A stretch of DNA of 64,000 bases, taken from the NCBI GenBank assembly GCA_963713825.1, contig CAVQNG010000003.1, positions 1,152,001 to 1,216,000 of the forward strand. Direction: 5' to 3'. Both the position numbers and the translations under genes were made by a program. The notes below the pieces were generated by a model. It was not told the origin of the DNA, did not search any database, and saw only the letters and a list, made by a program, of their open reading frames with translations. Origin of the DNA: an uncultured Acidobacteriota bacterium. Its GTDB lineage: Bacteria; Acidobacteriota; Thermoanaerobaculia; Multivoradales; JAHEKO01. Positions 1,096 to 53,237 of the stretch are shown here, one piece after another (position 1 is the first letter of the stretch; each line of letters begins with the position of its first letter).

Positions 1096-1141
1096 ACCTT
1101 AAACGTCGCAATGCCCTCCCGCGTTCTTGCAGAATCGGATG

Positions 1142-1194
1142 GCACTTCTCCATCCCTTGAGAGGTGCTCCAGACCCAGTTAGGTGGGTGGCACC
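1142..1194. repeat. Short palindromes upstream of the Y1 transposase (possible REP-like/terminal elements)
   Basis: gcacttctc..gagaggtgc hairpin at 1142-1167 and GGTG-GGTGG-CACC at 1182-1194. Confidence 0.35.
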
Positions 1195-1208
1195 GATGTC
1201 CTTCGCCT

Positions 1209-5918: not shown

Positions 5919-6428
5919 TTGGCTCGAATCAAGATACATCTCGAGACCGCGAGTGAGATCGACGGTATCCGCGAGATCAACGTCGAAGCGTTCCGTGACC
6001 ATCCGGTCAGTCGGCAGACCGAGCACTTGATCGTCGATGCATTGCGCGACAACGGCGCACTCGAAGTGTCGCTTGTGGCCGTCACCGAGGGTCGGACTGT
6101 CGGACACATTGCCTTCTCGAAGGCCGTCGTCGGCGACTCGGAATCCGATTGGTACTTGCTCGGCCCTGTCGCCGTTCAGCCCGGCGTGCAGGGTCAGGGG
6201 ATCGGTTCTGCGCTTGTGAACTTCGGGCTGGAGGAGTTGCGGACCCGACACGCGAGCGGTTGTGTCCTGGTGGGGGACCCAGGCTACTACTCTCGTTTCG
6301 GCTTCAGCACCTTCCCTGATCTGTCCTACGCAGGCGTGCCACACGAGTACGTTCTCGGGCTTCCGTTCACGGCAGCCAGCCCGTGCGGGTCGATTGTCGC
6401 GAACAAGGCCTTCGAGATCGAGCCGTAG
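5919..6428 (+). CDS. GNAT N-acetyltransferase (YhbS-like), cassette 2, attC not evident
   Basis: 'LGPVAVQPGVQGQGIGSALV', 'LVGDPGYYSRFGF'; starts just after the attC R' box (TTG start inferred). Confidence 0.85.
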   Translation: MARIKIHLETASEIDGIREINVEAFRDHPVSRQTEHLIVDALRDNGALEVSLVAVTEGRTVGHIAFSKAVVGDSESDWYLLGPVAVQPGVQGQGIGSALVNFGLEELRTRHASGCVLVGDPGYYSRFGFSTFPDLSYAGVPHEYVLGLPFTAASPCGSIVANKAFEIEP

Positions 6429-13026: not shown

Positions 13027-14463
13027 ATGCACCACAGACCATTTTCCACAATCGCCTTCGCGGTGATGATCGGCGCGCTTCTAGCGTGCGGTCCGACCGG
13101 TCCGGCCGCGGTCGCGCCGGAGGAGGCCCAGGCCTTCGCCAGGGAGGCCTACGTCTACGGCTACCCGATGGTGATGAACTACAAGACGCTCTACAACTAC
13201 GTGATCGACACTTCAAACCCCGAGTACAAGGGGCCGTTCAACAAGGTGGCCTGCGAGGCGCGGCTGTTCACCCCGGAGGACCGGGCGGTGGTGACGCCCA
13301 ACGCCGACACCCCCTACTGCATGTTCTGGATGGATCTCCAGGCTGAACCGCTGGTGCTGACCGTACCCGAAATGGAGCCGGAAAGGTTCTACCACTTTCA
13401 GCTCATCGACTGGTATACCCACAATTTCGCTTACGTCGGGACGCTGAGCACCGGCAACGACGCCGGAACCTTCCTCATCGCCGGTCCGGGCTGGGATGGC
13501 GCGGCGCCGGAGGGCGTTGACGACGTGCTGCGCAGCGAGACGGACCTCGTGTTCATCGTCGTCCGGACCCAGCTCTTCGGCCCCGACGACCTGGCGAGGG
13601 TTGGAGAGATCCAGGCGGAGTACACACTCGAGCCGCTGAGCGGTTTCCTCGGCACGGATCCGCCGCCGGCGCCACCCATGCGCGAGTTCCCGGTGTGGGA
13701 CGAGGGCGCCCAGTTCGATGAGCGGTTCTTCGTCTTTCTCGACGTCGCCATGGACCTGTTGGGGAACCCGGCACCGGGACGGGAGGACCTTTGGGAGCGG
13801 CTGGGCCAGCTCGGACTCGGACCGGGACACGACTTCGACTTCGCGGCGCTGCCGCCCGAAATCCAGGACTCCATGAAGGCGGGCCGCGAGGCCGGGTTCG
13901 CGGACATGGAAGGGTTCATCGAGGCCTACTCGCAGGACCCGCTCACCGGCGGCCGGATCTACGGCACCCGCGAGTTCCTCGCCGACAGTGCGGCGACGAA
14001 ATACCAGCTCGAGAACGCCGACCTGCTGCGTACGGTGGCGACCCACCTCGGCCTGTACGGCAACTCGGCCGCCGAAGCTCTTTACCCCGCCTACTTCGTC
14101 GACGCCGACGGCAGCCCCCTGGACGCCTCGGCCAACCGCTACACCATGACCTTTGCCGAAGGCCAGCTGCCGCCGGCGAAGGCCTTCTGGTCGCTGACCA
14201 TGTACGACGGCCGGACCCAGCTCTTCATCGACAACCCTCTCGACCGATACCTTCTGAGCTCCTCGATGCTGGATCAGCTAAGGATGGGAGAGGACGGCTC
14301 ACTCACCCTGTACATCCAGAAGGAGTCGTCGGGAAAGAACCACGAAAGCAACTGGCTGCCGGCGCCCGACGGGCCGTTCTATCTGGTGATGCGCCTCTAC
14401 GGGCCCGAGGCGGTTGCGGTCGACGGGACCTGGACGCCGCCGCCGGTGGAACCAGCGGAGTGA
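13027..14463 (+). CDS. DUF1254/DUF1214 lipoprotein
   Basis: 'AYVYGYP', 'TPNADTPY', 'FWSLTMYD', 'NWLPAP...MRLYGP'; lipobox 'LLAC'. Confidence 0.9.
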   Translation: MHHRPFSTIAFAVMIGALLACGPTGPAAVAPEEAQAFAREAYVYGYPMVMNYKTLYNYVIDTSNPEYKGPFNKVACEARLFTPEDRAVVTPNADTPYCMFWMDLQAEPLVLTVPEMEPERFYHFQLIDWYTHNFAYVGTLSTGNDAGTFLIAGPGWDGAAPEGVDDVLRSETDLVFIVVRTQLFGPDDLARVGEIQAEYTLEPLSGFLGTDPPPAPPMREFPVWDEGAQFDERFFVFLDVAMDLLGNPAPGREDLWERLGQLGLGPGHDFDFAALPPEIQDSMKAGREAGFADMEGFIEAYSQDPLTGGRIYGTREFLADSAATKYQLENADLLRTVATHLGLYGNSAAEALYPAYFVDADGSPLDASANRYTMTFAEGQLPPAKAFWSLTMYDGRTQLFIDNPLDRYLLSSSMLDQLRMGEDGSLTLYIQKESSGKNHESNWLPAPDGPFYLVMRLYGPEAVAVDGTWTPPPVEPAE

Positions 14464-14506
14464 TCCCCCGACCGGGGTCTTTGATGAGCAAGAGAAGAGG
14501 AGAACC

Positions 14507-15451
14507 ATGATGATTTCCACGGCATCCACATCGCACTGGAAGAGCATTCTTGTTGTGTCTGTCGGTCTGTCACTGGCAGCGGTTTCGGCCTGTGCTCGAA
14601 GCGATACGGACACCACCGCAAAGGCCCAACCACAGCCGGTACCCGTCGAGGAAGCGATCCCTGGTGAGAGCCTCGGGATCGCGTCCGTGGTGAACCTTCG
14701 CGACCTGGGCGGCTACACCACGAGCGATGGCGCGACTGTGGCCAGGGGGCTCATCTATCGCTCCAATCAGCTCAGCGAGATCCCCGAGGTTGACATGGAG
14801 AAGCTCGCCACCCTCGGGCTCGAGGTCGATTACGACCTGCGTACCGCTGCCGAGCGCGACGCCCGCCCGGACGAGCTGCCGCCGGGAGTCGAGTACGTGG
14901 TGGTCGACGTGCTGGCCGACTCGCCACAAGCGGGTCCGGCAATGCTGGAGAACTTGATGCAGGATCCCCAGGCGGCCAACGCGGAGCTCGGCGGAGGCAA
15001 GGTGGAAGAGGAATTCCGGGAGTCCTACCGCGGGTTCGTCTCGCTCCCGAGCGCAAAGACCGAGTTCAGCAAGATGTTCCACGGTCTGGCCGATGAAGAG
15101 AAACTCCCGGCGCTCTTCCACTGCACCACCGGCAAGGACCGGACCGGATGGGCCGCCGCGGCCCTCCTGACCCTGCTCGGCGTGCCGGAAGATCAGGTCT
15201 ACCAAGACTACCTGCGGAGCAACGACAACATCCTGCCGGCCTACAAGCACGTGATCGACCCGTTCGTCGAAGCGGGCGGTGACCCGGAGATCACGGCGGC
15301 GATCCTGGGCGTGAAGCGGGAGTACCTCGAGGCCTCGTTCGACGAGATGGAAACGAACTACGGCACCATCGAAAACTACTTCGCCGAAGCTCTGGGCATC
15401 GACGCCGCGGGGCAACAGGTCATCCGCGATCTTTATCGTCAAACCCATTGA
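14507..15451 (+). CDS. Protein-tyrosine phosphatase family (PtpB/IphP-like), predicted lipoprotein
   Basis: P-loop 'FHCTTGKDRTG', 'NLRDLGGY', 'DYLRSN'; 'AVSAC' lipobox. Confidence 0.88.
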   Translation: MMISTASTSHWKSILVVSVGLSLAAVSACARSDTDTTAKAQPQPVPVEEAIPGESLGIASVVNLRDLGGYTTSDGATVARGLIYRSNQLSEIPEVDMEKLATLGLEVDYDLRTAAERDARPDELPPGVEYVVVDVLADSPQAGPAMLENLMQDPQAANAELGGGKVEEEFRESYRGFVSLPSAKTEFSKMFHGLADEEKLPALFHCTTGKDRTGWAAAALLTLLGVPEDQVYQDYLRSNDNILPAYKHVIDPFVEAGGDPEITAAILGVKREYLEASFDEMETNYGTIENYFAEALGIDAAGQQVIRDLYRQTH

Positions 15452-15558
15452 ACTCGGTCTCAATTGTCGGAGGTAGGCCCATGAATCAACGAATCGATCG
15501 ACAAACCATTCCTGGCGCACTGCTCGCAACGGCGGCTTCGGACCGGAAGGAACCCTCG

Positions 15559-16749
15559 ATGAGCCGGATTGGGTTGGTCGTCGTGGCGCTGTTGATCTCC
15601 TCGGCAAGCGTCTGCCTTCATGCCGAGGAGTGGGCGCCCTTCGAGGGCGCCGAGCAACTGCGCGACCTCGTCGCCGGCGCGACGGCAGAGATCGAGATGA
15701 AACCCGGTCACGTTGCGGTGGGCCAGTACCGTGCGGACGGGACCGCGACGATCACCGCCTGGGGCGAAACCTATGAGCGCACGTGGGAGGTCGTCGGCGA
15801 CGAGCGGGTGTGCTACTCCTCGCTCACCGAGACCAACTGTTACACCTTTGAAACCAGCGTCGACGTGCCGGGTGAGTACCGCGCGCAGCACGTCGAGACC
15901 GGAGAGATCAGGATCTTCCGCGTCACAGAAGCGGACTCGGAAGTGATCACCGCAGACACCGCGCCGGGAGGGGAGGGCGGTCTCGGTGCGCCGTCCGCGT
16001 CGGAGGTTGCTGCGGCGCTTTCCAACCCCAACACGACCATGGGCACGATGAACACCCTCTTCGATTTCGTCGCCTATGACGGCGACCTGCCGGACGCCGG
16101 CTCGCAAAGTGTGTTCCGGGCGACCTTCCAGCCGTCGCTACCCTACCCTTTGTCCGACACCACCAACCTGTTCGTGCGACCGCTGATCCCGATCATCTTC
16201 AGCCAGGATGTGCCGACCGCGGACGGTTTTGAGTCGGTGGGTGTCGACCTCGGCGACATCGGGTTCGACGTCTTCCTCGCCAAGAACCTCGCAGGCGGCT
16301 TCGTCGTCGGCGGCGGTGTGGTCGGAACCCTACCGACCGCGACCGACGACGCCCTCGGCCTCGACCAGTGGCTGCTGGGGCCCGAGGTGCTGGTGGCCAA
16401 GGTCCCCAAGTGGGGTGTGCTCGGTCTGCTGTTGACCCACCAGTGGGACGTCGCCGGCGGTGACGGCGATGGCACCAGCATCACCGGCGGCCAGTACTTC
16501 TACACCATCAACCTGAAGGATGGGTGGCAGATCAACGGCGCGCCGGTGTACTCCTACAACCACAACGCCTCGAGCGGCAACGCGTGGACCTTTCCGATCG
16601 CCGTCGGCGCCGCCAAGACGACCATGATCGGCGGCCGGCCGTGGAAGTTCAACCTCCAGTACTGGCACTATGTCGTCTCTCCAGACACCTTCGGGCCGGG
16701 GAACCAGATCAGGATGGGCATCTCGCCGGTGGTCGAGCTCCCATGGTGA
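15559..16749 (+). CDS. Exported protein with C-terminal putative outer-membrane beta-barrel
   Basis: Signal peptide, 'LSNP', 'FQPSLP', 'LGDI', 'LPTATDD.LG' and amphipathic aromatic-rich strands. Confidence 0.6.
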   Translation: MSRIGLVVVALLISSASVCLHAEEWAPFEGAEQLRDLVAGATAEIEMKPGHVAVGQYRADGTATITAWGETYERTWEVVGDERVCYSSLTETNCYTFETSVDVPGEYRAQHVETGEIRIFRVTEADSEVITADTAPGGEGGLGAPSASEVAAALSNPNTTMGTMNTLFDFVAYDGDLPDAGSQSVFRATFQPSLPYPLSDTTNLFVRPLIPIIFSQDVPTADGFESVGVDLGDIGFDVFLAKNLAGGFVVGGGVVGTLPTATDDALGLDQWLLGPEVLVAKVPKWGVLGLLLTHQWDVAGGDGDGTSITGGQYFYTINLKDGWQINGAPVYSYNHNASSGNAWTFPIAVGAAKTTMIGGRPWKFNLQYWHYVVSPDTFGPGNQIRMGISPVVELPW

Positions 16750-16969
16750 CCGGAACCGTCGACGGAGAGTGGATGACTCGATTTGAGAGCTGCCGATCCG
16801 CAGCGTGGCGGCTGGCGCTTCCGTTTGCAAGCGAACTTCGTGCTGCCGAAGTAGCGACCGGTGTCACGGGTATGAGTCCGCTGAAGGGAACCCTTGCGGG
16901 TCCGTTCTTCGCTTTGATGATGAATGAGATTGGCGTTGAGAAACGCAACTAGTGGATGAGGAGGAAGAG

Positions 16970-18460
16970 ATGCACAGCTATTTCAACGATACAACCAGGC
17001 GTCCTTGGATCATGCTGTCGGCGATGTGCCTATTCATCGCGTTCGCTTTGCCGGTGCAGGGCGAGACGCTCGATACGAGAATAGGAGAGCTCGAGTACGA
17101 GGCAGGCTATCCCACGCAGGAGACCGTCGAGAAGCTTTATGACGAGTTGGACTTCCAGCGCGCCGTTCAGGCCTATCTCTGGGCACTGCCGATGGCGTCG
17201 TACGGAGCCATGGCGGATGCCCACTGGGCACTGGGTGCCGACAGCCACACGGTGATCGTTGCCGACAAGCTGGCCGAGCCACGGCAGCTGGCCCTGACGG
17301 CCAACCAGGACACCGTCTACATGTCCGGCGTTCTTGACCTGCGTGAAGGGCCGATGGTGATGGAGCTTCCGCCGGGTCTGCTGGGGACGATGAACAACAT
17401 CTGGCAGCAACCTCTGGTCGACCTCGGCGGCCCCTTCTCGCCCGAACAGAACCGCGGGGGAAAGTTCCTGATTCTGCCGCCCGGGTATGACGGTCCCCTG
17501 CCCGAGGTCCATCACCACATCGCACGTTCCGACACCGACATCGTGGTGTTTTACCTTCGGGCCATTCCGAAAACGCGGGAAGACATCCCACAACTGGTCG
17601 AGCTGATCCACACCTATCGCCAGTACAAGCTCGAGGACGCCGCCAATCCGCCCGAGACCCGGTTCGTATCGCTGGCAGGCAAGGACGCCGACCTTTTGAC
17701 CAACGAGGGCTTTGCCTACTTTGAGACCCTGGCCCGTTACATCAATGAGAACCCGCCCCGCTCGCAGGACATGGCGATGCTCGGCATGCTGGAGTCGCTC
17801 GGCATCGCCCACGGGCAGCCCTTCGAGCCGGACGAGCGCATGACGGCCATTCTCACCGAGGCGGCCACCGTCGGGCGGGCGATGGCAGAAGCCCTTGCCT
17901 TTGCACCGAGAGTGCCCAGGGACGTCGTCTATGCATATCCCGGAGAACGCCGCTGGAAGAAGATCTTCTTCGCGGATCCCACTTTCCACGAACCGGAGTA
18001 CATGGCCATCGATCTTCGTACCAAGTACGCCTTCGAGGCGATCGGCACGGCGAAGTCCATGGTCGTGTCCGTGCCCGGCCAGGGCTCCCAGTACATCGGG
18101 GCGTACCAGGATGCCGACGGCAACTGGCTGACCGGGGACAACACCTACCGGATTCACCTGCCCATGGACGTGCCGGCCAACATGTTCTGGTCGCTGACGG
18201 TCTACGACAACGACACCCGTTCGATGATCCAGAACGAACACGGGCGGCCGCTGGTCGGCTCGGTGCATGGTGCCGTCGCCAACAAAGACGGCTCCTTTGA
18301 TCTCTACTTCGGTCCCAAGATGCCGGCAGATGTGCCGGAAGATAACTGGGTGCAGACAATGCCGGGCAAGGGATGGTTTACCTACCTGCGCCTCTATGGC
18401 CCGGAACTGCCGTATTTCGAGAAAACCTGGATTCCCGGTGATGCGGAGAAACTGGATTAA
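16970..18460 (+). CDS. DUF1254/DUF1214 protein
   Basis: 'DFQRAVQAYLWALP', 'LTANQDTVY', 'FWSLTVYD', 'LRLYGP'. Confidence 0.9.
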   Translation: MHSYFNDTTRRPWIMLSAMCLFIAFALPVQGETLDTRIGELEYEAGYPTQETVEKLYDELDFQRAVQAYLWALPMASYGAMADAHWALGADSHTVIVADKLAEPRQLALTANQDTVYMSGVLDLREGPMVMELPPGLLGTMNNIWQQPLVDLGGPFSPEQNRGGKFLILPPGYDGPLPEVHHHIARSDTDIVVFYLRAIPKTREDIPQLVELIHTYRQYKLEDAANPPETRFVSLAGKDADLLTNEGFAYFETLARYINENPPRSQDMAMLGMLESLGIAHGQPFEPDERMTAILTEAATVGRAMAEALAFAPRVPRDVVYAYPGERRWKKIFFADPTFHEPEYMAIDLRTKYAFEAIGTAKSMVVSVPGQGSQYIGAYQDADGNWLTGDNTYRIHLPMDVPANMFWSLTVYDNDTRSMIQNEHGRPLVGSVHGAVANKDGSFDLYFGPKMPADVPEDNWVQTMPGKGWFTYLRLYGPELPYFEKTWIPGDAEKLD

Positions 18461-18480
18461 ACACTGTCGGAGGGCATCGA

Positions 18481-18585
18481 ACCGTGCCGAACAAGGGCTT
18501 CGGCGTGATCCTTCGGCTCTACGGTCCACTCGAACCCTGGTTCGACAAGACCTGGAAACCAGGCGACTTCGAGCTGGTGGAATAA
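18481..18585 (+). pseudogene. Orphan C-terminal fragment of another DUF1214 gene
   Basis: TVPNKGFGVILRLYGPLEPWFDKTWKPGDFELVE*, homologous to the end of the upstream gene, in a different frame. Confidence 0.8.
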
Positions 18586-18675
18586 GCGAGGAGAGATGAC
18601 GCCGCAGCGGTCACTACGCTGCGACGAACGATACGACCAACTCAGGAATGGACTCCAGATTCAAAGGAGAGAATC

Positions 18676-19677
18676 ATGAAGACACTAGCCACAACAATGC
18701 TGCTGGTCGCCCTCGTGGCGCCTGCCATGGCCGAGGACGTGACGGTCGACAACTACGTTCGGGCCGAGTCCGACCATATGATCCGCGCCAACATGAACAC
18801 CTTCGGCGTGGAGGTCGGCAAGCTGACCCATGTCCGCGAGCCCATCACGCCGGACAACCAGCCCGTCATCCGCATGAACCAGGACACGCTGTATTCGGCG
18901 GCCACTCTGGATGTCTCGAAACCGGTGGAGCTCACCCTGCCGGAGGCGGACGGGCGCTACATGTCCATGCACGTGGTGAACCAGGATCACTACATGTTCG
19001 TGGAATCGGATCCGGGGACCTACGAGCTCACCGAGGACTCCGTGGGCACGCGCTTTGCGTGGGTGGCGATTCGGACCTTTGCCGACCCCACCGATCCCGC
19101 CGACGTGGCAAAGGCCCACGCCGCGCAGGATGCGATCAAGATCAACGGCGGCGGCGATGGGCCGTTCGAGACCCCGGACTGGGACACCGAGGACCTCGCC
19201 GTGGCGCGCAAGGCCCTCAACGACCTCGCCGTGCTCGGCTTCGATGCATCCTACGCGTTCGGCCGCAAGGAAGATGTCCGCCCGATTGACTTCCTCGTCG
19301 GAGCGGCAGCCGGCTGGGGTGGGCTGCCGCGGACGGCAGCCATGTACGTGGTCGACAGCGTGAACAAAAACGACGGCGATACCCCGCACGCGATCACGGT
19401 GAAGGACGTGCCGGTGGATGCCTTCTGGTCGGTCACGGTCTACAACGCCGACGGCTATCTCGAAGACAACGATCGGGGCGTCAACAGCTACAACAACTTC
19501 TCGGCCGAGCCGAACGACGACGGTTCCCACACCCTCCATTTCGGCGGCTGCGACGACGGACGCGTCAACTGCATCCCCATCTCACCCGGCTGGAACTACG
19601 CGATCCGCATGTACGAGCCGGGTCCCGAGATCCTCGACGGGTCATGGCGCTTTCCGGCGCCGCAAGCGGTCGACTGA
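18676..19677 (+). CDS. DUF1254/DUF1214 protein (short type)
   Basis: 'IRMNQDTLYS', 'GWGGLP', 'FWSVTVYN', 'GWNYAIRMY'; signal peptide; RBS aaggag. Confidence 0.9.
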   Translation: MKTLATTMLLVALVAPAMAEDVTVDNYVRAESDHMIRANMNTFGVEVGKLTHVREPITPDNQPVIRMNQDTLYSAATLDVSKPVELTLPEADGRYMSMHVVNQDHYMFVESDPGTYELTEDSVGTRFAWVAIRTFADPTDPADVAKAHAAQDAIKINGGGDGPFETPDWDTEDLAVARKALNDLAVLGFDASYAFGRKEDVRPIDFLVGAAAGWGGLPRTAAMYVVDSVNKNDGDTPHAITVKDVPVDAFWSVTVYNADGYLEDNDRGVNSYNNFSAEPNDDGSHTLHFGGCDDGRVNCIPISPGWNYAIRMYEPGPEILDGSWRFPAPQAVD

Positions 19678-25341: not shown

Positions 25342-26424
25342 CTACTGTGGCGGAGTGTAGGGATCCCCTTCCTTCGCAGGGCACTCGTCCGAAAGCTCGT
25401 TGGCCTGCACGAGCATTCCCATCTTGCCACTGCACACCATATTTATGACCTCTCCCACCCCGTAGGGATAGTAGACCGATGGATGCAAGGCGTTCAGGAG
25501 GGCGGCCGTGCCATGACGACCGATCTTGTTGAGACCGCCACCCTTCAGGCGAATGGTCTCGGTCAGATACTTGGGATCGAGCTCGGTGTATTCGCAGACC
25601 GCGAAGTACTCTTCCCAGATGGTTTCCATGCCGGAGGTCAGCGAATCGACCGGCCAGTAGTTGCCCTGCTTCTTGGAGCCGTCGTGGTTCTTCCAGAAGC
25701 CCGGGGTGCAGCCGCTGCCTCCCCGCCGCTGGTAGACGATGTCGTCGATGGCTCCGGATCCCTGGATCCACACCTCCATCCTCCGGACTCCAGGCGTGTC
25801 GAACAGGTCGACCACGTGCTTGCCGTTGCCAGGATCGTTGTTCAGGATCGGGAAGGTGCCGAGTAGCGTGTCGTCCGCATCGTAGAGCTCGACGCGTGGA
25901 TTGGGACCGTTGCCGTCGATGTCGATGAAATCGATGCTCGTTGCGACGATATCGAACGGGAAGGTAAAGGTGACCACTGCCTCAGGAATCGAGTTGGAAT
26001 ACCCGATGTCATTCGGCGAATCCACGAGTCCGTCCGAGCCCACCGACCCATCCGAATTCGTGCAGGTGTCGGACACGTCTCTTTCGTTGATGATCAGGAC
26101 CATGCCCTGGGGGGTGCAGTTCTCGAATTCTCCACCAGCACCGACCGCCGGGTCGAAACCGTTCCCGGGTCCGCCGCAGGCGCCCGAAGGCGTTCCCAGA
26201 TCCAGATCCCTGACTGGTCCACATAGCCTCGGCGTTGTGAACGACGAGTCGAAGGCCACGGCAAAGTTGCCAGCGGCCTGTGGATTCACGCCGGAGATCA
26301 TCGCATCCCCCGACATCGTGATGAAATCACCATGCTCGAACTCTTCGAAATCGATCACTGCGGCCTGCACGCCCACCGAGGCGAGAGCTACCGCCAAAAT
26401 GCCTATCCATATCTTCCTTCCCAT
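25342..26424 (-). CDS. Secreted hypothetical protein with C-terminal 'GCTPGFWKNH' domain
   Basis: Signal peptide after RBS aaggag; Asp/Gly-rich beta domain; 'GCTPGFWKNH...AALLNA' tail. Confidence 0.75.
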   Translation of the reverse strand: MGRKIWIGILAVALASVGVQAAVIDFEEFEHGDFITMSGDAMISGVNPQAAGNFAVAFDSSFTTPRLCGPVRDLDLGTPSGACGGPGNGFDPAVGAGGEFENCTPQGMVLIINERDVSDTCTNSDGSVGSDGLVDSPNDIGYSNSIPEAVVTFTFPFDIVATSIDFIDIDGNGPNPRVELYDADDTLLGTFPILNNDPGNGKHVVDLFDTPGVRRMEVWIQGSGAIDDIVYQRRGGSGCTPGFWKNHDGSKKQGNYWPVDSLTSGMETIWEEYFAVCEYTELDPKYLTETIRLKGGGLNKIGRHGTAALLNALHPSVYYPYGVGEVINMVCSGKMGMLVQANELSDECPAKEGDPYTPPQ

Positions 26425-26535
26425 ACCGGATCTCCTTTTAGGGATGTCCATTGCTGTCTCTTTTCTCATTTCCCGCTGAGCGACGGATTCAGATTCCACC
26501 CTCAACGGCGAGCCCTTCTGGCTCTTCAGCAGCTC

Positions 26536-28185: not shown

Positions 28186-30801
28186 TCAGTAGCCCGGCTG
28201 CTCGTTGTGGTCGTAGCAAAGTACTGTGGTTTCGGCGCAGGGTTCGGCCGGCCCCAGAGTGGGGGCCGCCGCCAGGGCCGCGGCCGAGGTCGTGGCAAAC
28301 GGGCCCCACTTGATCGTCAGGCCGTCCTGATCGAGGCGGTAGGCTGCAGCCTGGTAGACGCCTCCGCCGGCCCAGCCGATGTCTCGCCAAAGGATGAGAA
28401 GGCTCGAGGATGTCCGTTGCAGCAGCTCGCCGGCCGGCTCCGAGGTCTCGATCACCGAAGTGTCAGGCATGGTCCACGAGAAGGGCTGGTAGTCGGCCCG
28501 CTGTCGAAGGATCAGGGTATCTGTGCCGGGCTCGTAGGACGACGGGTCGTACTGCCCGGTCTCTGTGGCGATCGGGGCAAAGGCGACGAGCTCGTCGGAG
28601 ACGGTACCCGCATCGGTCCGCTCGTACCAGCCGCCGAGGTTGGTGAACAGACTCGAGAAGTCGGTGTCGCCCTGCCACTGTGCGTTGCAGAGTGCTGCCT
28701 CGGCCCGCCAGGCCCACTGCAGCTGCTCAAACCGGGGCCGGAACCTTTGCGAATCGGGGTCGGCCATGTCCGCTTCCATCACCACCCCGTATGGGTCGCG
28801 ACGGATGTCGTCCATGAGCCCGAAGACGCAGGCGTTGATGAGCCTGCCCTCGACAACAGCCGAAACGTTGAACTCCATCTGTGCCCAGGGGTACTCGGGG
28901 TAGCCACCGCCGCCCACCCGGTAGCCAGCGTAGCCGGGGACCTCGTCCGCAAACGTCTGGGGCTGGGCGACAGAGTCTCCGGCGCTCACCGGGATGGGCG
29001 AGACTCCCAGCAAAAGGTCGGTGCCGGCGTCGACCCCTGTGCAGCTTTCCCAGCTCCGAGGGTCGCAGCCGGTGGCGGCGTGCACTGCGAGCGCTACGTC
29101 GTCGGCTATTCGGCCGACGTGGCCCAGCTCCATCTTCACACCCGAGTCGAGCGCCATGGCGACCTCCCAATGCGGGACGGCGTCGAAGTAATCCGACGGG
29201 GCGCCACTCTTCAATTTCATGCCGGAGATCACGCCGTCCTGGGGGGCGACGTACCATGGGATTCGCTGCCGTACCAGGAATCCATCCGCCGCCGCCCAAT
29301 AGGCACAACCACCGGCCTCCAACTCTGCAGTCGAACAGATGCCGTCGTCGTTGCCGATGCCATCACCCATGAGCTCGTCCAGCTCGCTATCGTCTGCCGG
29401 AAGAAAGCCAGAGAAATTGGCCTTGCGATCACCGAAGACGTGATTGCCGACGGGGGAGAAATGGCCGCCGTAGCCGCCGAGGGCGACGTGGATCGGATCA
29501 CCTGCGGTGGGGACCTCGAGCCGGCTATCGCCCGACTGGATCGCCGCGGAGATCCACGGCAAGTCGAAGACCGGCTGCTGGTCGCCGCTGATCTTCCAGA
29601 CGCCGCTATCCGCCGCGAAGACGCCGAGCTGATTGTGAGTCTGGGGTGCGAGCATGTCGTCGCGGGTGTCGAGATAGACCTGCCGGCCCCCCCCGCTTGC
29701 AGGCATGCCGGAACGGATCTGGCGGAAGTCGACTCCCTGTGGGCGGGACAGGATCGCTCGCTCGTTGGCTTCGTCGATGGTGGCGATCCGGGAGACATCC
29801 AGCACCGTGAACTCGATGTCGGTCCAGGCGGCCATCTCGCTGGCGAAGTCCGTGAACAACCCGGCCAGAGTCGTACCGTCGTGGAAGTAGTCGTCGGCGA
29901 ACGACGGGTGGGGTGAGGTGAACGGGACGCCCGACTCGAGCTGATCCGCGATTGTGGCGAGAGTGGACAGGACCTCGGCGACATCGCCCGAGGTAGTGCC
30001 GTCGATGAAACCGCCGAGCAACGTCCCTGACTGTGACCCGGCACAGTCGATGAGGTTGAAGCTGCCGAAATAGAGATCGACGGAGGGATCGAAGGTGGCC
30101 TCGAGAAGAGAGCCGGCCGAACAGCCCCCATCGAGGTCGAGCCCGATCGTCACCGCCTCGCCGACGGTCGAGAAGGAGGTCACTCCGCCATCCTGTCCCC
30201 ACGGTGGTGTCTGCTGCGTTCCGGACCAACTGCCCGCCACCAGATGCCCCTCCGCATCAAGGGCCACGGCCAGGCTGACAAAGTGGGGGGTCGAGAGGCC
30301 GTCGGTGGAGTCGGCGACAACGAAGCGACGTTCGACGAGCTCCTCCGACCAGCGCACGAGCTCGACCGTCTGGTTGGGGAGATCGCCGGTCAGAGCGAGG
30401 GTTGCTCGCCCTCCCTCGACCGGGCCGGACAGGGTGACGATCCTGTCTCCTGAGGGGCGGCCCAGGGCGAGCTCCAGATCGAGCACGCCGCCGGTGTAGG
30501 CCCCTGACCGCATGACCCAGCTCTCGCTAGTCCCGAGCAGGTAGCCGAGAAGCTCTCCGTCGGCCCGTTGATGTAGCTGAACCGCTAGGGGTCGGGCGAC
30601 CTCACCGGGAAACACCAGAGCGCCTATCCAGGTACCCTCCACGTCGGCAGGAGGAAGACAAGTTGCCTCCCAGGCGCACAGATCCCCTGACTCGAAGCTG
30701 TCGAGGAAGAGTGGAGTTGCGGCATCGACTCCGGATGCCATCGAGGAGCCGATGGCGACCCCCAGCGCGACCGCCGCGCAACGAAAAATAGACGATCTCA
30801 T
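28186..30801 (-). CDS. Large secreted hypothetical protein
   Basis: 871 aa; signal peptide followed by 'LFLDSFESGDLCAW'; several Cys pairs. Confidence 0.75.
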   Translation of the reverse strand: MRSSIFRCAAVALGVAIGSSMASGVDAATPLFLDSFESGDLCAWEATCLPPADVEGTWIGALVFPGEVARPLAVQLHQRADGELLGYLLGTSESWVMRSGAYTGGVLDLELALGRPSGDRIVTLSGPVEGGRATLALTGDLPNQTVELVRWSEELVERRFVVADSTDGLSTPHFVSLAVALDAEGHLVAGSWSGTQQTPPWGQDGGVTSFSTVGEAVTIGLDLDGGCSAGSLLEATFDPSVDLYFGSFNLIDCAGSQSGTLLGGFIDGTTSGDVAEVLSTLATIADQLESGVPFTSPHPSFADDYFHDGTTLAGLFTDFASEMAAWTDIEFTVLDVSRIATIDEANERAILSRPQGVDFRQIRSGMPASGGGRQVYLDTRDDMLAPQTHNQLGVFAADSGVWKISGDQQPVFDLPWISAAIQSGDSRLEVPTAGDPIHVALGGYGGHFSPVGNHVFGDRKANFSGFLPADDSELDELMGDGIGNDDGICSTAELEAGGCAYWAAADGFLVRQRIPWYVAPQDGVISGMKLKSGAPSDYFDAVPHWEVAMALDSGVKMELGHVGRIADDVALAVHAATGCDPRSWESCTGVDAGTDLLLGVSPIPVSAGDSVAQPQTFADEVPGYAGYRVGGGGYPEYPWAQMEFNVSAVVEGRLINACVFGLMDDIRRDPYGVVMEADMADPDSQRFRPRFEQLQWAWRAEAALCNAQWQGDTDFSSLFTNLGGWYERTDAGTVSDELVAFAPIATETGQYDPSSYEPGTDTLILRQRADYQPFSWTMPDTSVIETSEPAGELLQRTSSSLLILWRDIGWAGGGVYQAAAYRLDQDGLTIKWGPFATTSAAALAAAPTLGPAEPCAETTVLCYDHNEQPGY

Positions 30802-30906: not shown

Positions 30907-31518
30907 TCATGTGTTGGAGGCGTTCACCACGAACCCGGTAACGAGCTCGATCGCTTCGGCCCGGGTAATGCGATCCTCTTGTGTCAGCGAACGCCAGGCC
31001 TGAAAGTCGACGGCGTGGCGCGTTGCGGCCAGCAGTAGATGCCGCCTTCGACCTCGAGCGGCCCAGCCGGTGGCCAGGATCTCGGCCACCTCGTCGAGGT
31101 ACTCCTTCATGGGAACAAGCGTCGGGCGCAGATCTTCGATGAGCTCGGCGTCCCGCAGGACGTTGCTGAACATTCGCTCGGTGCTCTCATAGTACGCGTA
31201 GAGATCGTCCAGCACTTGCTCGAGTCGCTGGCGAGGGTCGCTGATCTTCCGCCAGGGCTCGATGTCGGGTAGCGGATGTTCTGCGAAGAAGTGTGCTGAA
31301 CAAGCCCCGAAGAGATCGGCTTCGGTGGGGAAGTGGCGGTAGACGGTGTGGCGCTGCACGCCTGCCCGGTCTGCGACTGCGCTCAATGTTGTGCGGGCTG
31401 GCCCGACCGTCCCGTGGAGCTCGGCGGCAGCCGCGGCGATTCTCTGCCGAGTCTCAATCATCGTGTCGGCTCGCTTCTTGAGCTGGTATCTGCGCTTCGA
31501 TGTCTTTTCATGTGCCAT
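30907..31518 (-). CDS. TetR/AcrR family transcriptional regulator
   Basis: HTH 'TTLSAVADRAGVQRHTVYRHFP'. Confidence 0.9.
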   Translation of the reverse strand: MAHEKTSKRRYQLKKRADTMIETRQRIAAAAAELHGTVGPARTTLSAVADRAGVQRHTVYRHFPTEADLFGACSAHFFAEHPLPDIEPWRKISDPRQRLEQVLDDLYAYYESTERMFSNVLRDAELIEDLRPTLVPMKEYLDEVAEILATGWAARGRRRHLLLAATRHAVDFQAWRSLTQEDRITRAEAIELVTGFVVNASNT

Positions 31519-31534
31519 GGTTGTGCAATGAATA

Positions 31535-31563
31535 TTGACATGATGCGGCTCTCTCTGTACAGT
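31535..31563 (+). promoter_or_regulatory. Sigma70-type promoter for the AhpD-like gene
   Basis: TTGACA (31535-31540), 17-bp spacer, TACAGT (31558-31563); GTGCAA repeated at 31523, 31562 and 31584 (possible TetR operator). Confidence 0.6.
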
Positions 31564-31606
31564 GCAATTCATCAACCAAGCACGTGCAACAAAAATGGAG
31601 GGCTAC

Positions 31607-32182
31607 ATGGCCCGAATCAAGACCGTTTCAGAAAACGAGGCCCGCGGCATCCAGCGCGCACTTGTCTGGCACACAAAGCGTCAATATGGCTATCTGCCGG
31701 GGATCTTCAAGATTCTCCTGCCGGACTTCGGACTGGCGCGACATGTGGGAGCCATCTACAACCATCTCCAGCTTCGCGCGGGCTCGCCGTTGAGCCGTCT
31801 GCAACGCGAGATGATCGCTGTGGTGGTGAACGGTCACATCAGCGGCGCGCCGTGACTGGCTCTCCATACGACGGCCGTGCGCCGTCTCACAGGGGATGAG
31901 CACCTCTCCAGCGAGTTTGCAACTACCTGGCAGACCTACGATCTCGACGAGGGGACCCAGAGCCTGCTCGCCTATGCCGAGAAGCTCACGAAGTCCCCGA
32001 GCCAGCTCGAAGACTCGGACGTCGACGCCCTGCGAGAAGCGGGTTGGAGCGAGGATGCAATCTACGAGGCTACCGCCCTGATCTCGTTCTTCAACTTCAG
32101 CGGCCGACTGGAGGCCGCCTCTGGCCTGCCGCCCGACGAGGTTCCCGCCGGGGCGGTGACGCCGGAAGCTCGGTCCGAATAG
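31607..32182 (+). CDS. AhpD/carboxymuconolactone-decarboxylase-like protein with in-frame TGA (probable selenocysteine, residue 83)
   Basis: ORFs 31562-31855 and 31877-32182 share a frame and are separated only by TGA 31853-31855: 'LSRLQREMIAVVVNGHISGAP-U-LALH'; second half 'LLAYAEKLT..P...DVDALREAGWS...FFNFSGR'. Confidence 0.75.
31856..31900 (+). other. Putative bacterial SECIS hairpin
   Basis: GACGGC-CGTGC-GCCGTC (31870-31886); loop G lies 22 nt after the UGA. Confidence 0.55.
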
Positions 32183-32190
32183 TCCGCAGG

Positions 32191-33615
32191 CTAGCTCGCG
32201 GCTTTGGCCCACCGCGCTTCGTTGAGGGCCGCCGCTTCGGCACTCGGTAGCTCGAGGCCGTGCGAGTCGGGTCCGCGGTCCGCTCTCTTGAGTCGGAAGG
32301 CGAAGAAGACGGCGAAAAGCCCGAAAGCAGCGAACGTCAACATGGTGACGGTGTAGTCGTAGACGCCGGTTCCCGCCTGGAGGGCCTCGACGGTGACCTC
32401 CGGGTTCGACTTGTCCAGGACCCACCCGGCGATGAAAGCCATGGCCCACCACCACAGGTTCTGCATCCAGGTCATCAGTCCGTAGGCGGTGCCGAGGCGC
32501 TTCTCCTCGACGATCAACGCCACCGCAGGCCACATGGCAGAGGGCACGAGGGAGAAGGCGATCCCAAACATCGGCACGAGCAGCCAGGGGGTGATGTAGG
32601 TCAGTGCGAACCCCAGGTGCGAGGCCACCAGGAGAATCGAGCCGCCGATCATCAGCGTGGCGCGCAGTCCCTTCTTGTCCACGAAAGCGCCGAAGATGAT
32701 GGTGAAAACGGCGGCACCCCAGGGGATGAGCGACGTGAAGTCGCCGGCCGCGATTTCTCCGTAGCCGTACTTGTGCTTGAGCATGTCGGCCAGATAGTCC
32801 TGGAACGGAAAAACGATGGCGTAGAACGTCGCGCACAAGAGCATGATGTAGAGGTAGGACTTGTTAGCGAAGAGCGATAGCACGTCCTTGAGGTGGAACT
32901 CCTCGTCGGCAGCCAGCTTGGCGGCGTCCCCGGTGCCACGCTTCTTCTCGTCGCGAAAGTCCATGGCCATGTAGATGATGAAGAGGATCAGTCCCGAAAG
33001 CATGACGACCGCGCCGAGCCACAGCGACGAGTGGAAGCCGAACCGCTCGGCGATCCTCGGTGACATGGACATGCCCAGAGCGCTGCCCACCCGGGCGAAG
33101 CCCAGGTTGAGTCCGAAGGCCAGGGCCAGTTCTTTGCCCATGAACCACTTCGCCAGCACCTTGTTGAGCATGACGATCTGAGTCTCGGCCCCGAGACCGA
33201 AGAGCAGCCGCCCGAGCATCAGCATCTTGAGCTCGGGCGAGTAGGCGGGCAGGAACGAGCTCATCAGGTCGTAGCCGAAACCGCCGGCTGTGAAGGCGTC
33301 GCTGACGCTGTAGGCCGTTACGATGCCGCCCAGGGCGCAGAGCAGAGTGAAGACGAAGCCGGTCTTCCGAATGCCGAACCGATCCAGAAAAATCCCCCCC
33401 AGGAGAGCCATGAAGAGGAACGTATTCGGGACGTTGTAGAAGTTCCGGATCATTCCCCACTGGGTGGAGGTGGCTCCGAGCTCGGTCTGCAGCGTCCCTT
33501 TGAGCGTCGAGAAACAGTCGTAGAGGTAGTAGTTCGCGAAGATGACGAGGCTCATCAAGACGAGGACGACCCAACGGGTCGCACCACGGCTCTCTTCGGG
33601 TTTCGGATCGGTCAA
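32191..33615 (-). CDS. MFS transporter (MFSD1-like)
   Basis: 'GGIFLDRFGIR' motif A, 'GRLLFGLGAE', about 12 TM. Confidence 0.88.
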   Translation of the reverse strand: MTDPKPEESRGATRWVVLVLMSLVIFANYYLYDCFSTLKGTLQTELGATSTQWGMIRNFYNVPNTFLFMALLGGIFLDRFGIRKTGFVFTLLCALGGIVTAYSVSDAFTAGGFGYDLMSSFLPAYSPELKMLMLGRLLFGLGAETQIVMLNKVLAKWFMGKELALAFGLNLGFARVGSALGMSMSPRIAERFGFHSSLWLGAVVMLSGLILFIIYMAMDFRDEKKRGTGDAAKLAADEEFHLKDVLSLFANKSYLYIMLLCATFYAIVFPFQDYLADMLKHKYGYGEIAAGDFTSLIPWGAAVFTIIFGAFVDKKGLRATLMIGGSILLVASHLGFALTYITPWLLVPMFGIAFSLVPSAMWPAVALIVEEKRLGTAYGLMTWMQNLWWWAMAFIAGWVLDKSNPEVTVEALQAGTGVYDYTVTMLTFAAFGLFAVFFAFRLKRADRGPDSHGLELPSAEAAALNEARWAKAAS

Positions 33616-39748: not shown

Positions 39749-40633
39749 TTACATCATCTGCACGCCGGCGAGATTCCTATGAATACTTCTCTTGTACTTG
39801 TATTTTGGGTACCCGACGATCAGCGAGGTCATGACCTTGTTTTCCTTCGGGATTCCGTAGCGCTGCCGCAGGACCTTGGAACGGTCCACGATCGGCGGTA
39901 TCAGGCCGATGATCGTGGTTCCCAGGCCCAGTGAGAGAGCGGCCAACATGGCGTGGTGGCAGACCAGGTGGGCGTTTTCCTCGTAGGACATCGCCCAACG
40001 GTTGCCGTGAAAGAGCATGAGCATCGGTGCCCGGTACATGTATCGGTCCGTGCCGTCACGGTGATACGCCTCGTTGGCATATCGCGCTAGATCCACAATG
40101 TAGTCCTTCAACATCCGGTAGCTTTCGGCTCCACTGACCAGCCGAACCACGGCTCGGCCGACCGGATTGGAAAAGGCCCGAACCAGGGATGCATAGTCCT
40201 TGACGAGTTCCGTCAGCAGGAAGTCGAGCTCCTTTCGCTGATCGAGGACCACGACCTCTGTCGAATGGGGTGGCATACCCATCGGTGCGGTGGCGGCAGC
40301 GGCCAGGATCTTCTCGGTCAACTCCTTGTCGACCGGCCGGTCTTTGAATACGCGCACACTGCGGCGCATTGCGAGGAAGTCGAGGAAGTCGCCGTAGCCG
40401 AACGGCAGCTTGGCCAAGTCCTCGAAGTCCTCCATTGGCAGCTTCGGCATTTCGAGCGCTTCGGTGGGGCAAACCGCCACACACTGCCCACAGAGAATGC
40501 AATGGTCCTCTCGACTTTCGACAGTAGCCGCTTTGCCGTCGAGGATCTCCAGGACGTTCTCCGGGCAGATGTCGACGCAAATGCCGTCACCCCTGCAGGA
40601 CTCCAGATCTACCAGATGCAGCTCCGCGGCCAT
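39749..40633 (-). CDS. Nitroreductase family protein with N-terminal 4Fe-4S dicluster domain
   Basis: 'CRGDGICVDICP', 'CILCGQCVAVCP', 'RRSVR'. Confidence 0.9.
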   Translation of the reverse strand: MAAELHLVDLESCRGDGICVDICPENVLEILDGKAATVESREDHCILCGQCVAVCPTEALEMPKLPMEDFEDLAKLPFGYGDFLDFLAMRRSVRVFKDRPVDKELTEKILAAAATAPMGMPPHSTEVVVLDQRKELDFLLTELVKDYASLVRAFSNPVGRAVVRLVSGAESYRMLKDYIVDLARYANEAYHRDGTDRYMYRAPMLMLFHGNRWAMSYEENAHLVCHHAMLAALSLGLGTTIIGLIPPIVDRSKVLRQRYGIPKENKVMTSLIVGYPKYKYKRSIHRNLAGVQMM

Positions 40634-51388: not shown

Positions 51389-52753
51389 TCAGGGCAGGCT
51401 GGCAGACCATTGGGAAAGGTCCCCGGACTCGAAGCCCTCGAGGAAGATCAGGAGAAGCTCTTTGAACTCCTCTGCCAGAGTCCAGCCAGGATTTCCGTCC
51501 GCCTGCCAGAGGTATGCTCCCACATCGGCGGCACCACCTCGCTGCCGCCCATTGAAGTCGTCTGTAGCCAGGTAGAGCGGGCTGGCGGATCCCACCAGTT
51601 GAGAGACGGTTGCCGGAAACGCATCCTGGGGCAAATCTCCCGAGTAGCTTGCCGCTGAGAGGTCGAGATCGATGTCGCCCGAGGCGTCGAAACCGGTGCT
51701 GACCCCCGTCAAGCCTCCACTTCCGACATTTGCGACCACGGTCAGCTTCGAAGTGTCGCCCGAGACGCGAATGGCATCTCCACTCTGGGCAAAGAGCGCA
51801 TTGTTGGCGATGACCACCGAGCCCGCGATGCTGCTGCTTCTGACCGCCGAGTTGGCAGGGGCCAGAACGGTGTTGTGGGTGATCAGGAGATTCGATGGCA
51901 CTCCGTTTTGGTGCGGCTGGTTGCGAATGCCGTCCTGCGCCGCCCCCAGGATGATGTTGTTGCGGATCACGGCATCGGCGGCCGACTGGATCGCGTGGTC
52001 GCCGCAGCCCCACATGAGATTGCGTTCGAGGATGTTGGGTCCGCCGTTGCCAACGGTGGAGTAGGTGAGAATGCAGGGATAGTTGGTGTCGTGGATCACG
52101 TTGTCGCGGACGATGTTGTTGTAGCTGCCCTCTTTGATTTCGATGCCATCGCCCTGGGAAACGCCCGCACCGTTGGTGTGATGGATGTAGTTACCCTCGA
52201 TCAGGCTGTCGAACATGCGGCAGTCGTCGTAGTTGCAGCCCAGATACATCCCTTCGCCGGTGTTGTCGGTGTCGTGAATGTGATTGCGGCGCAGCACCAG
52301 GCCTTCATAGGAGCTGCCGGGAACATTGGCGGACAGTGCCACGTCGTTGGTGCCGTGGATGTGGCAGTCCTCCACGGTGATGAAGTCGGAATGCGAGATC
52401 CTGATGCCGTGCGAGCCGCCGGTCACCTCGAGACCCCGCAGCGTCACAAAGGCACTGGACTCGACATTGATGACGTTTTGCGCTGCACTTGGATAGACGA
52501 TCACCGGTGTGTCGCCGTCCTTGGCTCGGATCAGGATGGGCGACCCGGCTGTGCCGACCCGCTGAATGCTGAACCGCGAACCGAGAGTGTAGGTGCCTCC
52601 GAGCAGAACCAGCTCATCTCCGGGCTGCAGAGCGTTGACGGCTGACTGGAGGTTGTCTCCGGGGCCGATCTCTGTGGTCACTGCCCCGACCGGCATGGCC
52701 AGAGCAAGAGTCAGGAGAAGCCCGGTGCAGACAGAGACCCTTCGGAAGCTCAT
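51389..52753 (-). CDS. Secreted right-handed parallel beta-helix protein
   Basis: 'LQPGDELVLLGGTY', repeated 'N.IH.T' strands, 'ADVGAY'; FESGD tail. Confidence 0.85.
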   Translation of the reverse strand: MSFRRVSVCTGLLLTLALAMPVGAVTTEIGPGDNLQSAVNALQPGDELVLLGGTYTLGSRFSIQRVGTAGSPILIRAKDGDTPVIVYPSAAQNVINVESSAFVTLRGLEVTGGSHGIRISHSDFITVEDCHIHGTNDVALSANVPGSSYEGLVLRRNHIHDTDNTGEGMYLGCNYDDCRMFDSLIEGNYIHHTNGAGVSQGDGIEIKEGSYNNIVRDNVIHDTNYPCILTYSTVGNGGPNILERNLMWGCGDHAIQSAADAVIRNNIILGAAQDGIRNQPHQNGVPSNLLITHNTVLAPANSAVRSSSIAGSVVIANNALFAQSGDAIRVSGDTSKLTVVANVGSGGLTGVSTGFDASGDIDLDLSAASYSGDLPQDAFPATVSQLVGSASPLYLATDDFNGRQRGGAADVGAYLWQADGNPGWTLAEEFKELLLIFLEGFESGDLSQWSASLP

Positions 52754-52829
52754 GACCCTCCAAGCTAGAGAGGTGACCGGAGACCCGATATGGAGTTCGT
52801 AACACACCCGCATATACTCACGAAGCTCG

Positions 52830-53237
52830 ATGACGGATCCGCCAGACATCAACTCGTCCGAAGCTCTCACGCGAGGTGTGCGAGTCCAGGTGCGATCACA
52901 GTTCGATCCGACCCGCTCGGAACCGAGCGCAGGTCAGTGGTTCTTCCTCTACACGGTGACGATCGAAAACCTCGCAGAGGAGACGGTTCAGCTGCTAACG
53001 CGGCACTGGATCATTACGGATGGTAATGGTCACGTGGAAGAAGTCCGTGGCCCAGGGGTCGTTGGTGAGCAACCCATACTGGCGCCCGGCGAGGCCTTCG
53101 AGTACACGTCCGGTTGCCCGCTGACGACCGAAGTGGGCAAGATGGAAGGCACCTACCAGATGATCACGAACTCAGGCGAGCAGTTCGATGCTGCAATCGC
53201 GCCCTTCACACTCGCCACGCCGGGCCCGGTACACTGA
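52830..53237 (+). CDS. apaG: ApaG protein
   Basis: 'QLLTRHWIITDG...GPGVVGEQP...FEYTSGCPL.T..G.MEG.Y'. Confidence 0.95.
   Translation: MTDPPDINSSEALTRGVRVQVRSQFDPTRSEPSAGQWFFLYTVTIENLAEETVQLLTRHWIITDGNGHVEEVRGPGVVGEQPILAPGEAFEYTSGCPLTTEVGKMEGTYQMITNSGEQFDAAIAPFTLATPGPVH

Follow-up and report, generated by a model that had tools for sequence, protein, structure and literature searches.

We analysed a 64,000-nt stretch of contig CAVQNG010000003.1 from an uncultured Acidobacteriota bacterium (the window), and found that its positions 31607 to 32182 are best read as one gene for a protein with the AhpD-like fold, in which the in-frame UGA codon 83 would be decoded as selenocysteine (Sec) through a small intragenic selenocysteine insertion sequence (SECIS). 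The product would be a single-selenol catalyst working with an external thiol, and we give this reading as a whole a probability of about 0.78. The in-frame TGA itself almost certainly encodes selenocysteine, because it is conserved among related loci, is replaced by cysteine in distant homologues, aligns with the second cysteine of the AhpD motif and is followed by a hairpin that is constrained at the RNA level. An earlier note on this DNA had proposed an AhpD/carboxymuconolactone decarboxylase (CMD)-like selenoprotein, and the conserved TGA, the cysteine column, the alignment with the second cysteine of solved structures and the constrained hairpin all bear this proposal out. That this is a single gene with a conserved TGA, a Cys/Sec column, a constrained hairpin and the AhpD-like fold with its relay residues is shown here; we infer that selenium is inserted, what the substrate and the external reductant are, and that TetR exerts control.

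In the open reading frame (ORF) listing of the window, made with translation table 11, the ORFs 31562..31855 and 31877..32182 share one frame. From the ATG at 31607 this frame holds 191 codons before the stop codon TAG at 32180-32182, with the TGA at 31853-31855 as the sole interruption, and the 191-aa read-through translation contains no cysteine; the joining of two same-frame ORFs into a cysteine-free protein, as described in the earlier note, was thus reproduced. In this predicted coding sequence, which lies on the plus strand, the putative Sec codon (U83) is preceded by the codon for Glu68 (31808-31810) and followed by the codon for His87 (31865-31867).

Related loci were collected by a genome scan with one genome per species, which gave 36 loci, many of them covering residues 1-188 or more. 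Wherever a locus spans this site in the proper frame, which 34 of them do, the aligned codon was TGA; TGG, TGC and TGT were each found in none. The two loci outside this count are a C-terminal fragment (L036) and a locus that is frame-shifted upstream of the site (L035). The motif around the site reads G-[GA]-A-P-TGA-L-G-L-H-T-A-A-V-R-R-L-T, and glycine stands at -3 from the TGA in the window gene and in 34/34 loci. The carriers belong to more than ten phyla and include Acidobacteriota (L001 and L002, at 89% identity), Actinomycetota including Rubrobacteraceae, Chloroflexota, Dormibacterota, Gemmatimonadota, Ignavibacteriota, KSB1, NC10, Binatota, Eiseniibacteriota, Desulfobulbaceae, Myxococcales and a cultured Neobacillus isolate (L024). 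TGA is also the ordinary stop codon in 22 of the 33 Pfam-supported genes of the window, therefore there is no general reassignment of the code.

A few of these loci showed peculiarities of their own. The copy on a Myxococcales chromosome (L014) is decayed, with TAA at codon 138 (6412-6414), and L035, when compared with L022, has lost roughly 70 nt (at about 6060), which shifts its frame, while the TGA and the hairpin are still kept. L001 and L002 are two gene copies on separate contigs of one Acidobacteriota metagenome-assembled genome (MAG), whose proteins differ in the last residue only and whose downstream genes differ, with DUF885 in one and an alpha-L-fucosidase in the other. The two copies are due to a duplication or else to an artefact of binning or assembly.

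The read-through protein matched the NCBIfam model TIGR01926 ('peroxidase-related enzyme') with 105.9 bits (cut-off 81.8) over profile positions 2-176 of 178. As this match runs from end to end, both halves belong to a single protein. The earlier note had considered that the halves might consistently be separate genes, and this was not upheld, given this match and the conservation across the TGA in the 34 loci. The Pfam CMD threshold of 23 was narrowly passed by the read-through protein, with 23.9. A phmmer search against the PDB matched five AhpD-like structures, 6k40 (1e-22), 3c1l, 2oyo, 2pfx and 2prr, and identity to the closest solved relatives was 30-33%. In the three printed alignments (6k40, 3c1l and 2oyo), the segment G80-A-P-U83-L-A-L-H87 sits on C-x-x-C-x-x-x-H, with the TGA at the second cysteine position of CxxC and Gly80 at the first.

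The AlphaFold2 model, built on 50 relatives, had a predicted local distance difference test (pLDDT) value of 96.4, and its best fold matches in the PDB were again 6k40, 3c1l, 2prr, 2pfx and 2oyo, with query template-modelling scores (TM-scores) of 0.78-0.80. In the predicted model, E68 lies in helix 64-78, and both U83 and H87 lie in helix 81-95, U83 near the helix N-terminus. These three positions (E68, U/C83 and H87) were invariant in 50/50 Sec and Cys forms. The spacings of 15 residues from E68 to U83 and 4 from U83 to H87 are the same as in Mycobacterium tuberculosis AhpD and in PA0269, for which the accessible part of the published structural work gives the proton relays Glu118/Cys130/His132/Cys133/His137 and Glu36/Cys48/Tyr50/Cys51/His55, respectively (PMC3141380); His87 is the equivalent of His137 and His55, and Glu68 that of the relay glutamate. 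Among the 34 orthologues, 28 are free of cysteine, and the remaining six hold one cysteine each, at non-conserved places.

Cysteine was found in the column of the TGA in 18 full-length homologues from the protein collection, at 48-56% identity, and cysteine together with the motif occurred in 23 protein matches, P0001 and P0002 included. The motifs of these Cys forms read xxxC-L-x-x-H, some with C-S-C. In a quick maximum-likelihood tree, the Sec forms (32 rows) and the Cys forms (18 rows) were split at one branch with a Shimodaira-Hasegawa-like approximate likelihood ratio test (SH-aLRT) value of 93; the tree was rooted at the midpoint only and excludes L002, L014, L023, L035, L036 and all proteins with tryptophan at the site. 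Aligning homologues to look for TGA or cysteine at this position, with the frame kept on both sides, had been proposed in the earlier note, and the outcome was TGA in every in-frame locus and cysteine in the distant homologues.

The hairpin that had been described after the TGA, GACGGC-CGUGC-GCCGUC, was found again at 31870-31886 on the plus strand. It has a 6-bp stem, which starts 14 nt after the TGA, and a 5-nt loop, whose G (31877) is 22 nt downstream of the TGA. RNAalifold on 33 aligned sequences retained a 5-bp stem. Across the alignment, 97.5% of the 198 cells of the 6-bp stem were paired, compared with 32-70% when the 3' partners were slid. The covariation score and the percentage paired were equalled by none of 500 shuffles, a count from which no probability can be taken because related sequences can beat all shuffles without any structure. 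At the pair 19/33, G-C is the commonest combination, with 24 sequences; G-U occurs in 5, and the compensatory change to A-U in 4. A G is present in 33/33 loops, and a stem-loop close behind the UGA, with a G in its small apical loop, is described as a feature of bacterial SECIS elements in the accessible part of the literature on them (PMC1088965). A longer lower stem, predicted from the window sequence alone, was rejected, as the alignment did not support it and only the upper stem of 5-6 bp is conserved.

Several observations weigh against the selenoprotein reading as a whole or in part. For the hairpin, the fold of the single sequence after the TGA was unexceptional (z = -0.31, with 68/200 shuffles folding at least as well), and it was not counted as evidence. 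Several double changes were seen at only one stem pair. The stem also codes for conserved residues (T/A-A ... R-R), so that its conservation is partly at the protein level. For this last reason the synonymous sites were examined, in the 62 codon columns that fall in four-fold boxes. Their median third-position entropy was 1.75 bits, and the stem codons 88, 89, 92 and 93 had 0.61, 0.00, 0.54 and 0.85 bits, which are the four lowest of the 62 columns; by combinatorics, the chance of four stem codons ranking lowest is 1 in 557,845. The two arginine codons of the stem are only CGC or CGU across all sequences. The synonymous constraint shows that selection acts on the RNA itself, just where one would look for a bacterial SECIS.

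Another point of this kind is that database proteins do not all carry the expected residue: tryptophan was found at the site in 16 of the closer, apparently full-length proteins (P0003, P0005-P0009, P0011-P0018, P0020 and P0028), leucine in one (P0004) and arginine in one short match (P0217). Homologues with tryptophan had been named in the earlier note as something that would speak against selenocysteine, and at face value these 16 proteins do so. However, the tryptophan forms are best explained as gene calls, probably made with TGA read as Trp, since their best identities to TGA-bearing genome loci are 62-86%, no TGG was found in the 34 loci, and their C-terminal tails are rich in tryptophan (14/244 residues, compared with 1/161 in the Cys forms). 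The tail tryptophan typically stands where relatives stop, as in ...SARVW-EVSK. Some metagenome gene callers use a table in which TGA means Trp. No genome locus identical to any of the tryptophan-bearing proteins was found, the best matches being those at 62-86%, so that the argument is an indirect one. Reading TGA as Trp could likewise distort the prediction of other selenoproteins from short metagenomic contigs. The codons for leucine and arginine are single-base neighbours of TGA, and these two forms may be errors or dead alleles.

The machinery for selenocysteine also did not appear near the gene: neither the 64-kb window nor the sequence flanking the 36 loci showed selA, selB, selD or tRNA-Sec. 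For tRNA-Sec, ARAGORN gave no match in either set, and the Pfam scan of 46 + 3 window ORFs and 130 locus-neighbour proteins brought up no SelA, SelB or SelD. Published reports that are available in part describe Sec-decoding organisms in Acidobacteria, Chloroflexi, Actinobacteria including Rubrobacter, and Bacillales, and selA, selB and selD from KSB1 MAGs. From these reports on the same phyla, the Sec trait is plausible in the carrier lineages, which is no proof for the source genome.

Two further points concern the chemistry and not the codon. The canonical AhpD mechanism requires both cysteines, so peroxidase-type activity cannot be assumed for this protein, and no peroxiredoxin domain was found in the 130 neighbour proteins or near the gene in the window. 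The first cysteine of AhpD is called essential in the accessible part of the structural work (PMC3141380). With glycine in place of this first cysteine, and no cysteine at all in most orthologues, a dithiol/disulfide cycle is impossible.

A mechanism that would fit these constraints begins with a selenolate activated by the Glu68/His87 relay. The second cysteine is reportedly the attacking nucleophile in M. tuberculosis AhpD, as Koshkin et al. are said to have found in 2003, and the selenolate would stand in its place. The substrate, for which a hydroperoxide or an oxidised thiol partner is the most likely candidate, would then oxidise the selenolate to Se-OH or Se-S-R. An external thiol would restore the selenol without an internal disulfide, much as happens in glutathione peroxidase or the 1-Cys peroxiredoxins, whose one selenol or thiol reacts with the oxidising substrate and is then regenerated by an external thiol. 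Expression would probably start from the near-consensus promoter upstream of the gene and be controlled by the divergently encoded TetR repressor.

For the genomic context, two ORFs on each side of the 36 loci were surveyed, which gave 130 proteins. TetR was found within two upstream ORFs in 13/36 loci, an upstream ORF being present to examine in 32. In 5 loci, every one from an actinobacterial MAG (three are labelled Rubrobacteraceae), the next gene upstream on the same strand encodes Cupin_2. An ODP-type (PF19583) metallo-beta-lactamase-fold protein adjoins on the same strand in 6 loci (L012, L013, L014, L016, L021 and L022), and Amidohydro_2 adjoins the selenoprotein gene in 2. It is possible that the ODP-family and Cupin_2 neighbours are functional partners. 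The lack of peroxiredoxin neighbours argues against a classical AhpC partner. As no neighbour is common to all clades, the context gives no firm substrate.

This context bears on the alternative that comes closest, in which the gene encodes the same selenoprotein and the lone selenol does not reduce peroxides; it would instead attack a halogen or another electrophile (in reductive dehalogenation, or to detoxify a TetR-sensed xenobiotic), or bind a soft metal or metalloid. The small-molecule character of the neighbours (TetR, Cupin_2, ODP-type and Amidohydro_2) would agree with this, as would the count of 0/130 peroxiredoxins. The AhpD-like fold also hosts Bmp8 (6ohj, 6ohi), which we take to be a debrominase and which is among the fold matches at E-values of 7e-5 to 2e-4. 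Iodothyronine deiodinases dehalogenate with a single Sec. However, the annotation of the closest solved relatives (30-33% identity) is that of antioxidant or alkylhydroperoxidase proteins, and the match to Bmp8 is far weaker; the Glu-His relay of a peroxidase-type site is invariant, and none of the small-molecule neighbours is kept across all clades. We therefore regard this other chemistry as unlikely, if still worth considering beside the thiol-dependent selenol catalyst that we prefer.

Read-through of the UGA by something other than selenocysteine, such as a Cys-charged Sec-like tRNA, a suppressor tRNA or near-cognate Trp or Cys tRNAs, would agree with the missing Sec genes in the window and the locus flanks. 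In its accessible part, one report describes selC*-type tRNA-Cys that may suppress opal codons in delta-proteobacteria, and Acidobacteria with unusual tRNAs that resemble suppressors (PMC5389517). However, the TGA and its hairpin span more than ten phyla, far beyond the lineages for which such tRNAs are described there, and Sec decoders are reported from several of the carrier groups, as mentioned above (Acidobacteria, Chloroflexi, Actinobacteria with Rubrobacter, Bacillales and KSB1). A plain Cys codon would also be the simpler way to obtain a cysteine, and the sister clade has one. This explanation is very improbable. That there is no read-through at all, with the halves being a pseudogene, a product of sequencing error or two separate small genes, is barely credible: gene callers do give the halves separately, GTG at 31877 could start the second ORF, and the decayed copies L014 and L035 exist, but the TGA and the amino acids on both sides of it are conserved in 34/34 loci, the TIGR01926 match runs from end to end, the full-length model is confident, and the residues right after the TGA, including the invariant His87, precede any start codon of a second ORF.

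In the protein collection, the selenoprotein clade appears mostly in pieces. There were 103 short proteins matching residues 1-82, of which 89 have a length of exactly 82 aa and stop right in front of the TGA; G-x-P stands directly before the stop in 99/103 of these N-terminal half-proteins, and two N-terminal tails that end in C-A-V are frameshifted reads. All of the short N-terminal matches that are named in their source are labelled 'hypothetical protein'. About 80 further matches, 105-165 aa long, cover the C-terminal part, and one of these bears the name 'carboxymuconolactone decarboxylase family protein'. Among the close relatives in the protein collection, none has C (standing for U) at the site, so no record annotating Sec in the GxxU clade was seen there. 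The splitting of the gene by standard annotation, which the earlier note had expected, is therefore real. Its description of the selenoprotein as hidden holds for this splitting and does not hold for the family, since AhpD-like (COG2128) selenoproteins have been known since 2005 and only the GxxU motif differs.

Upstream of the gene, the features described in the earlier note, a near-consensus promoter and a divergent TetR gene, were both confirmed. The sigma-70-like promoter TTGACA-17-TACAGT (31535-31563, plus strand) has 10/12 consensus positions, and L001 and L002 have TTGACA-17-TATAGT at the corresponding place; one promoter-like site was observed within 31400-32300, compared with 0.1 expected in shuffles. 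A Shine-Dalgarno-like GGAGGG (31597-31602, plus strand), read from the sequence, ends 4 nt before the ATG, and its GGAG is kept in L001 and L002. The TetR-family gene lies at 30907-31530 on the minus strand, with its ATG at 31530 (the mechanical ORF extends to a TTG at 31575) and a Pfam TetR_N match of 1.1e-12. In the intergenic region between TetR and the ahpD-like gene, the repeat finder gave no repeat of 8 nt or more, inverted or direct, that could serve as an operator. Three GTGCA-containing blocks, in addition to the promoter hexamers, are kept among window 31516-31600, L001 5911-5993 and L002 1-82, and these blocks may be a candidate TetR operator. Directly beyond the TetR gene, an 871-residue ORF (28186-30801, minus strand) has no Pfam match at 1e-5, and its first residues resemble a signal peptide. 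Downstream, a convergent MFS transporter gene follows at 32191-33615 on the minus strand (Pfam MFS_1 1.2e-38). No MFS protein was found among the 130 neighbour proteins of the 36 loci, and the gene is regarded as context only.

Other parts of the window and the loci yielded some separate observations. In L004 (Thermoanaerobaculia), a fusion of Fer4 and Nitroreductase (915-1793, minus strand) is encoded downstream, some 400 nt from the selenoprotein gene, and the same Fer4-Nitroreductase architecture is found in the window at 39749-40630 (minus strand), about 7.5 kb from the gene. In the Rfam search of the window, only a riboswitch passed the gathering thresholds, a c-di-GMP-I-GGC aptamer (RF03167; 26537-26646, minus strand; 62.4 bits with a gathering score of 59), which lies just upstream of an ORF without a Pfam domain (25342-26502, minus strand). 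Three DUF1254/DUF1214 proteins are encoded at 13027-19674 (plus strand), with a gene of the tyrosine-phosphatase family and a domainless ORF between them, and an ORF at the window edge (154-1092, minus strand) has a weak match to an IS200-like Y1 transposase, with 27 bits and a cut-off of 23. When the annotation gap at 52000-53120 was read with TGA as a sense codon in the search for other selenoprotein genes, it gave only ordinary genes overrunning their stops.

It is tempting to regard the gene as a member of a distinct and widespread clade whose enzymes use the AhpD scaffold with a single selenol and no thiol, hidden from standard annotation and with a chemistry beyond that of the CxxC and CxxU relatives, although in this full form the proposal is tentative and, in our estimation, rather doubtful. 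If it were true, it could mean peroxide reduction like that of glutathione peroxidase with an external thiol, or, with TetR as the regulator, reductive dehalogenation or electrophile detoxification like that of the deiodinases or Bmp8; the setting would be aerobic soil lineages, among them Acidobacteriota, Gemmatimonadota, Dormibacterota and Rubrobacteraceae. An AhpD fold that keeps the Glu/His relay and has Sec as its only chalcogen would be a natural test of whether a lone Sec can replace a dithiol couple, and the cultured Neobacillus carrier (L024) makes the prediction testable at the bench. For annotation, the family is at present filed as an 82-residue 'hypothetical protein' and a shortened 'CMD family protein', or with a false catalytic Trp, which skews estimates of the selenoproteome and of selenium use for soil and groundwater bacteria.

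Compared with known systems, the predicted protein resembles M. tuberculosis AhpD and PA0269 in its Glu...Cys...His relay with the identical spacings of 15 and 4, and differs from AhpD in having no CxxC, no possible intramolecular disulfide, Sec in place of Cys and no gene for ahpC or a peroxiredoxin beside it. The fold match to M. tuberculosis AhpD itself is no more than distant, with an E-value of about 0.1. The all-helical fold is shared with the solved TIGR01926-type structures, namely 6k40 from D. radiodurans, 3c1l (Mlr4105), 2oyo, 2pfx and 2prr. Bmp8 (6ohi, 6ohj) also has a fold of the AhpD/CMD type (query TM-score 0.65-0.67) and is much more distant, at 21-22% identity. The likeness to glutathione peroxidase and the 1-Cys peroxiredoxins is one of mechanistic analogy only, a lone selenol or thiol being recycled by an external thiol, as their folds are unrelated.

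The closest known group is the AhpD-like selenoproteins, described since 2005. In the accessible parts of the literature, these comprise 27 sequences of COG2128 with the motif CXXU in the Sargasso Sea survey, two AhpD-like (COG2128) selenoproteins in a genome survey of 2006, and the groups AhpD-like 1 (299 sequences) and AhpD-like 2 (70 sequences), both CxxU, in the Global Ocean Sampling (GOS) survey; they are also known from genomes such as that of Alkaliphilus metalliredigenes, and a 2026 review lists an 'AhpD-like protein, TIGR01926, CxxU'. No GxxU entry of the AhpD-like type was found in the literature search, and the GxxU entries in the accessible part of the 2026 review all belong to other families. 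BSepDB, as described in the part of its documentation available to us, offers an 'AhpD-like protein family' from a homology-based pipeline, and the GxxU members may well have been gathered there already, perhaps catalogued without comment. The description of the AhpD-like selenoprotein family drew on marine metagenomes, whereas the carriers of the window clade belong mostly to phyla of soil, sediment and groundwater, and unlike the published CxxU proteins, this clade has G-[AGV]-P-U and usually no cysteine anywhere. In other respects the two agree, as the window protein passes TIGR01926, has one Sec at the second motif position with His at +4, is followed just downstream of its Sec codon by a SECIS hairpin, and has cysteine-containing homologues. 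It is therefore strongly supported that the window gene belongs with the AhpD-like selenoproteins, as a GxxU, thiol-free variant.

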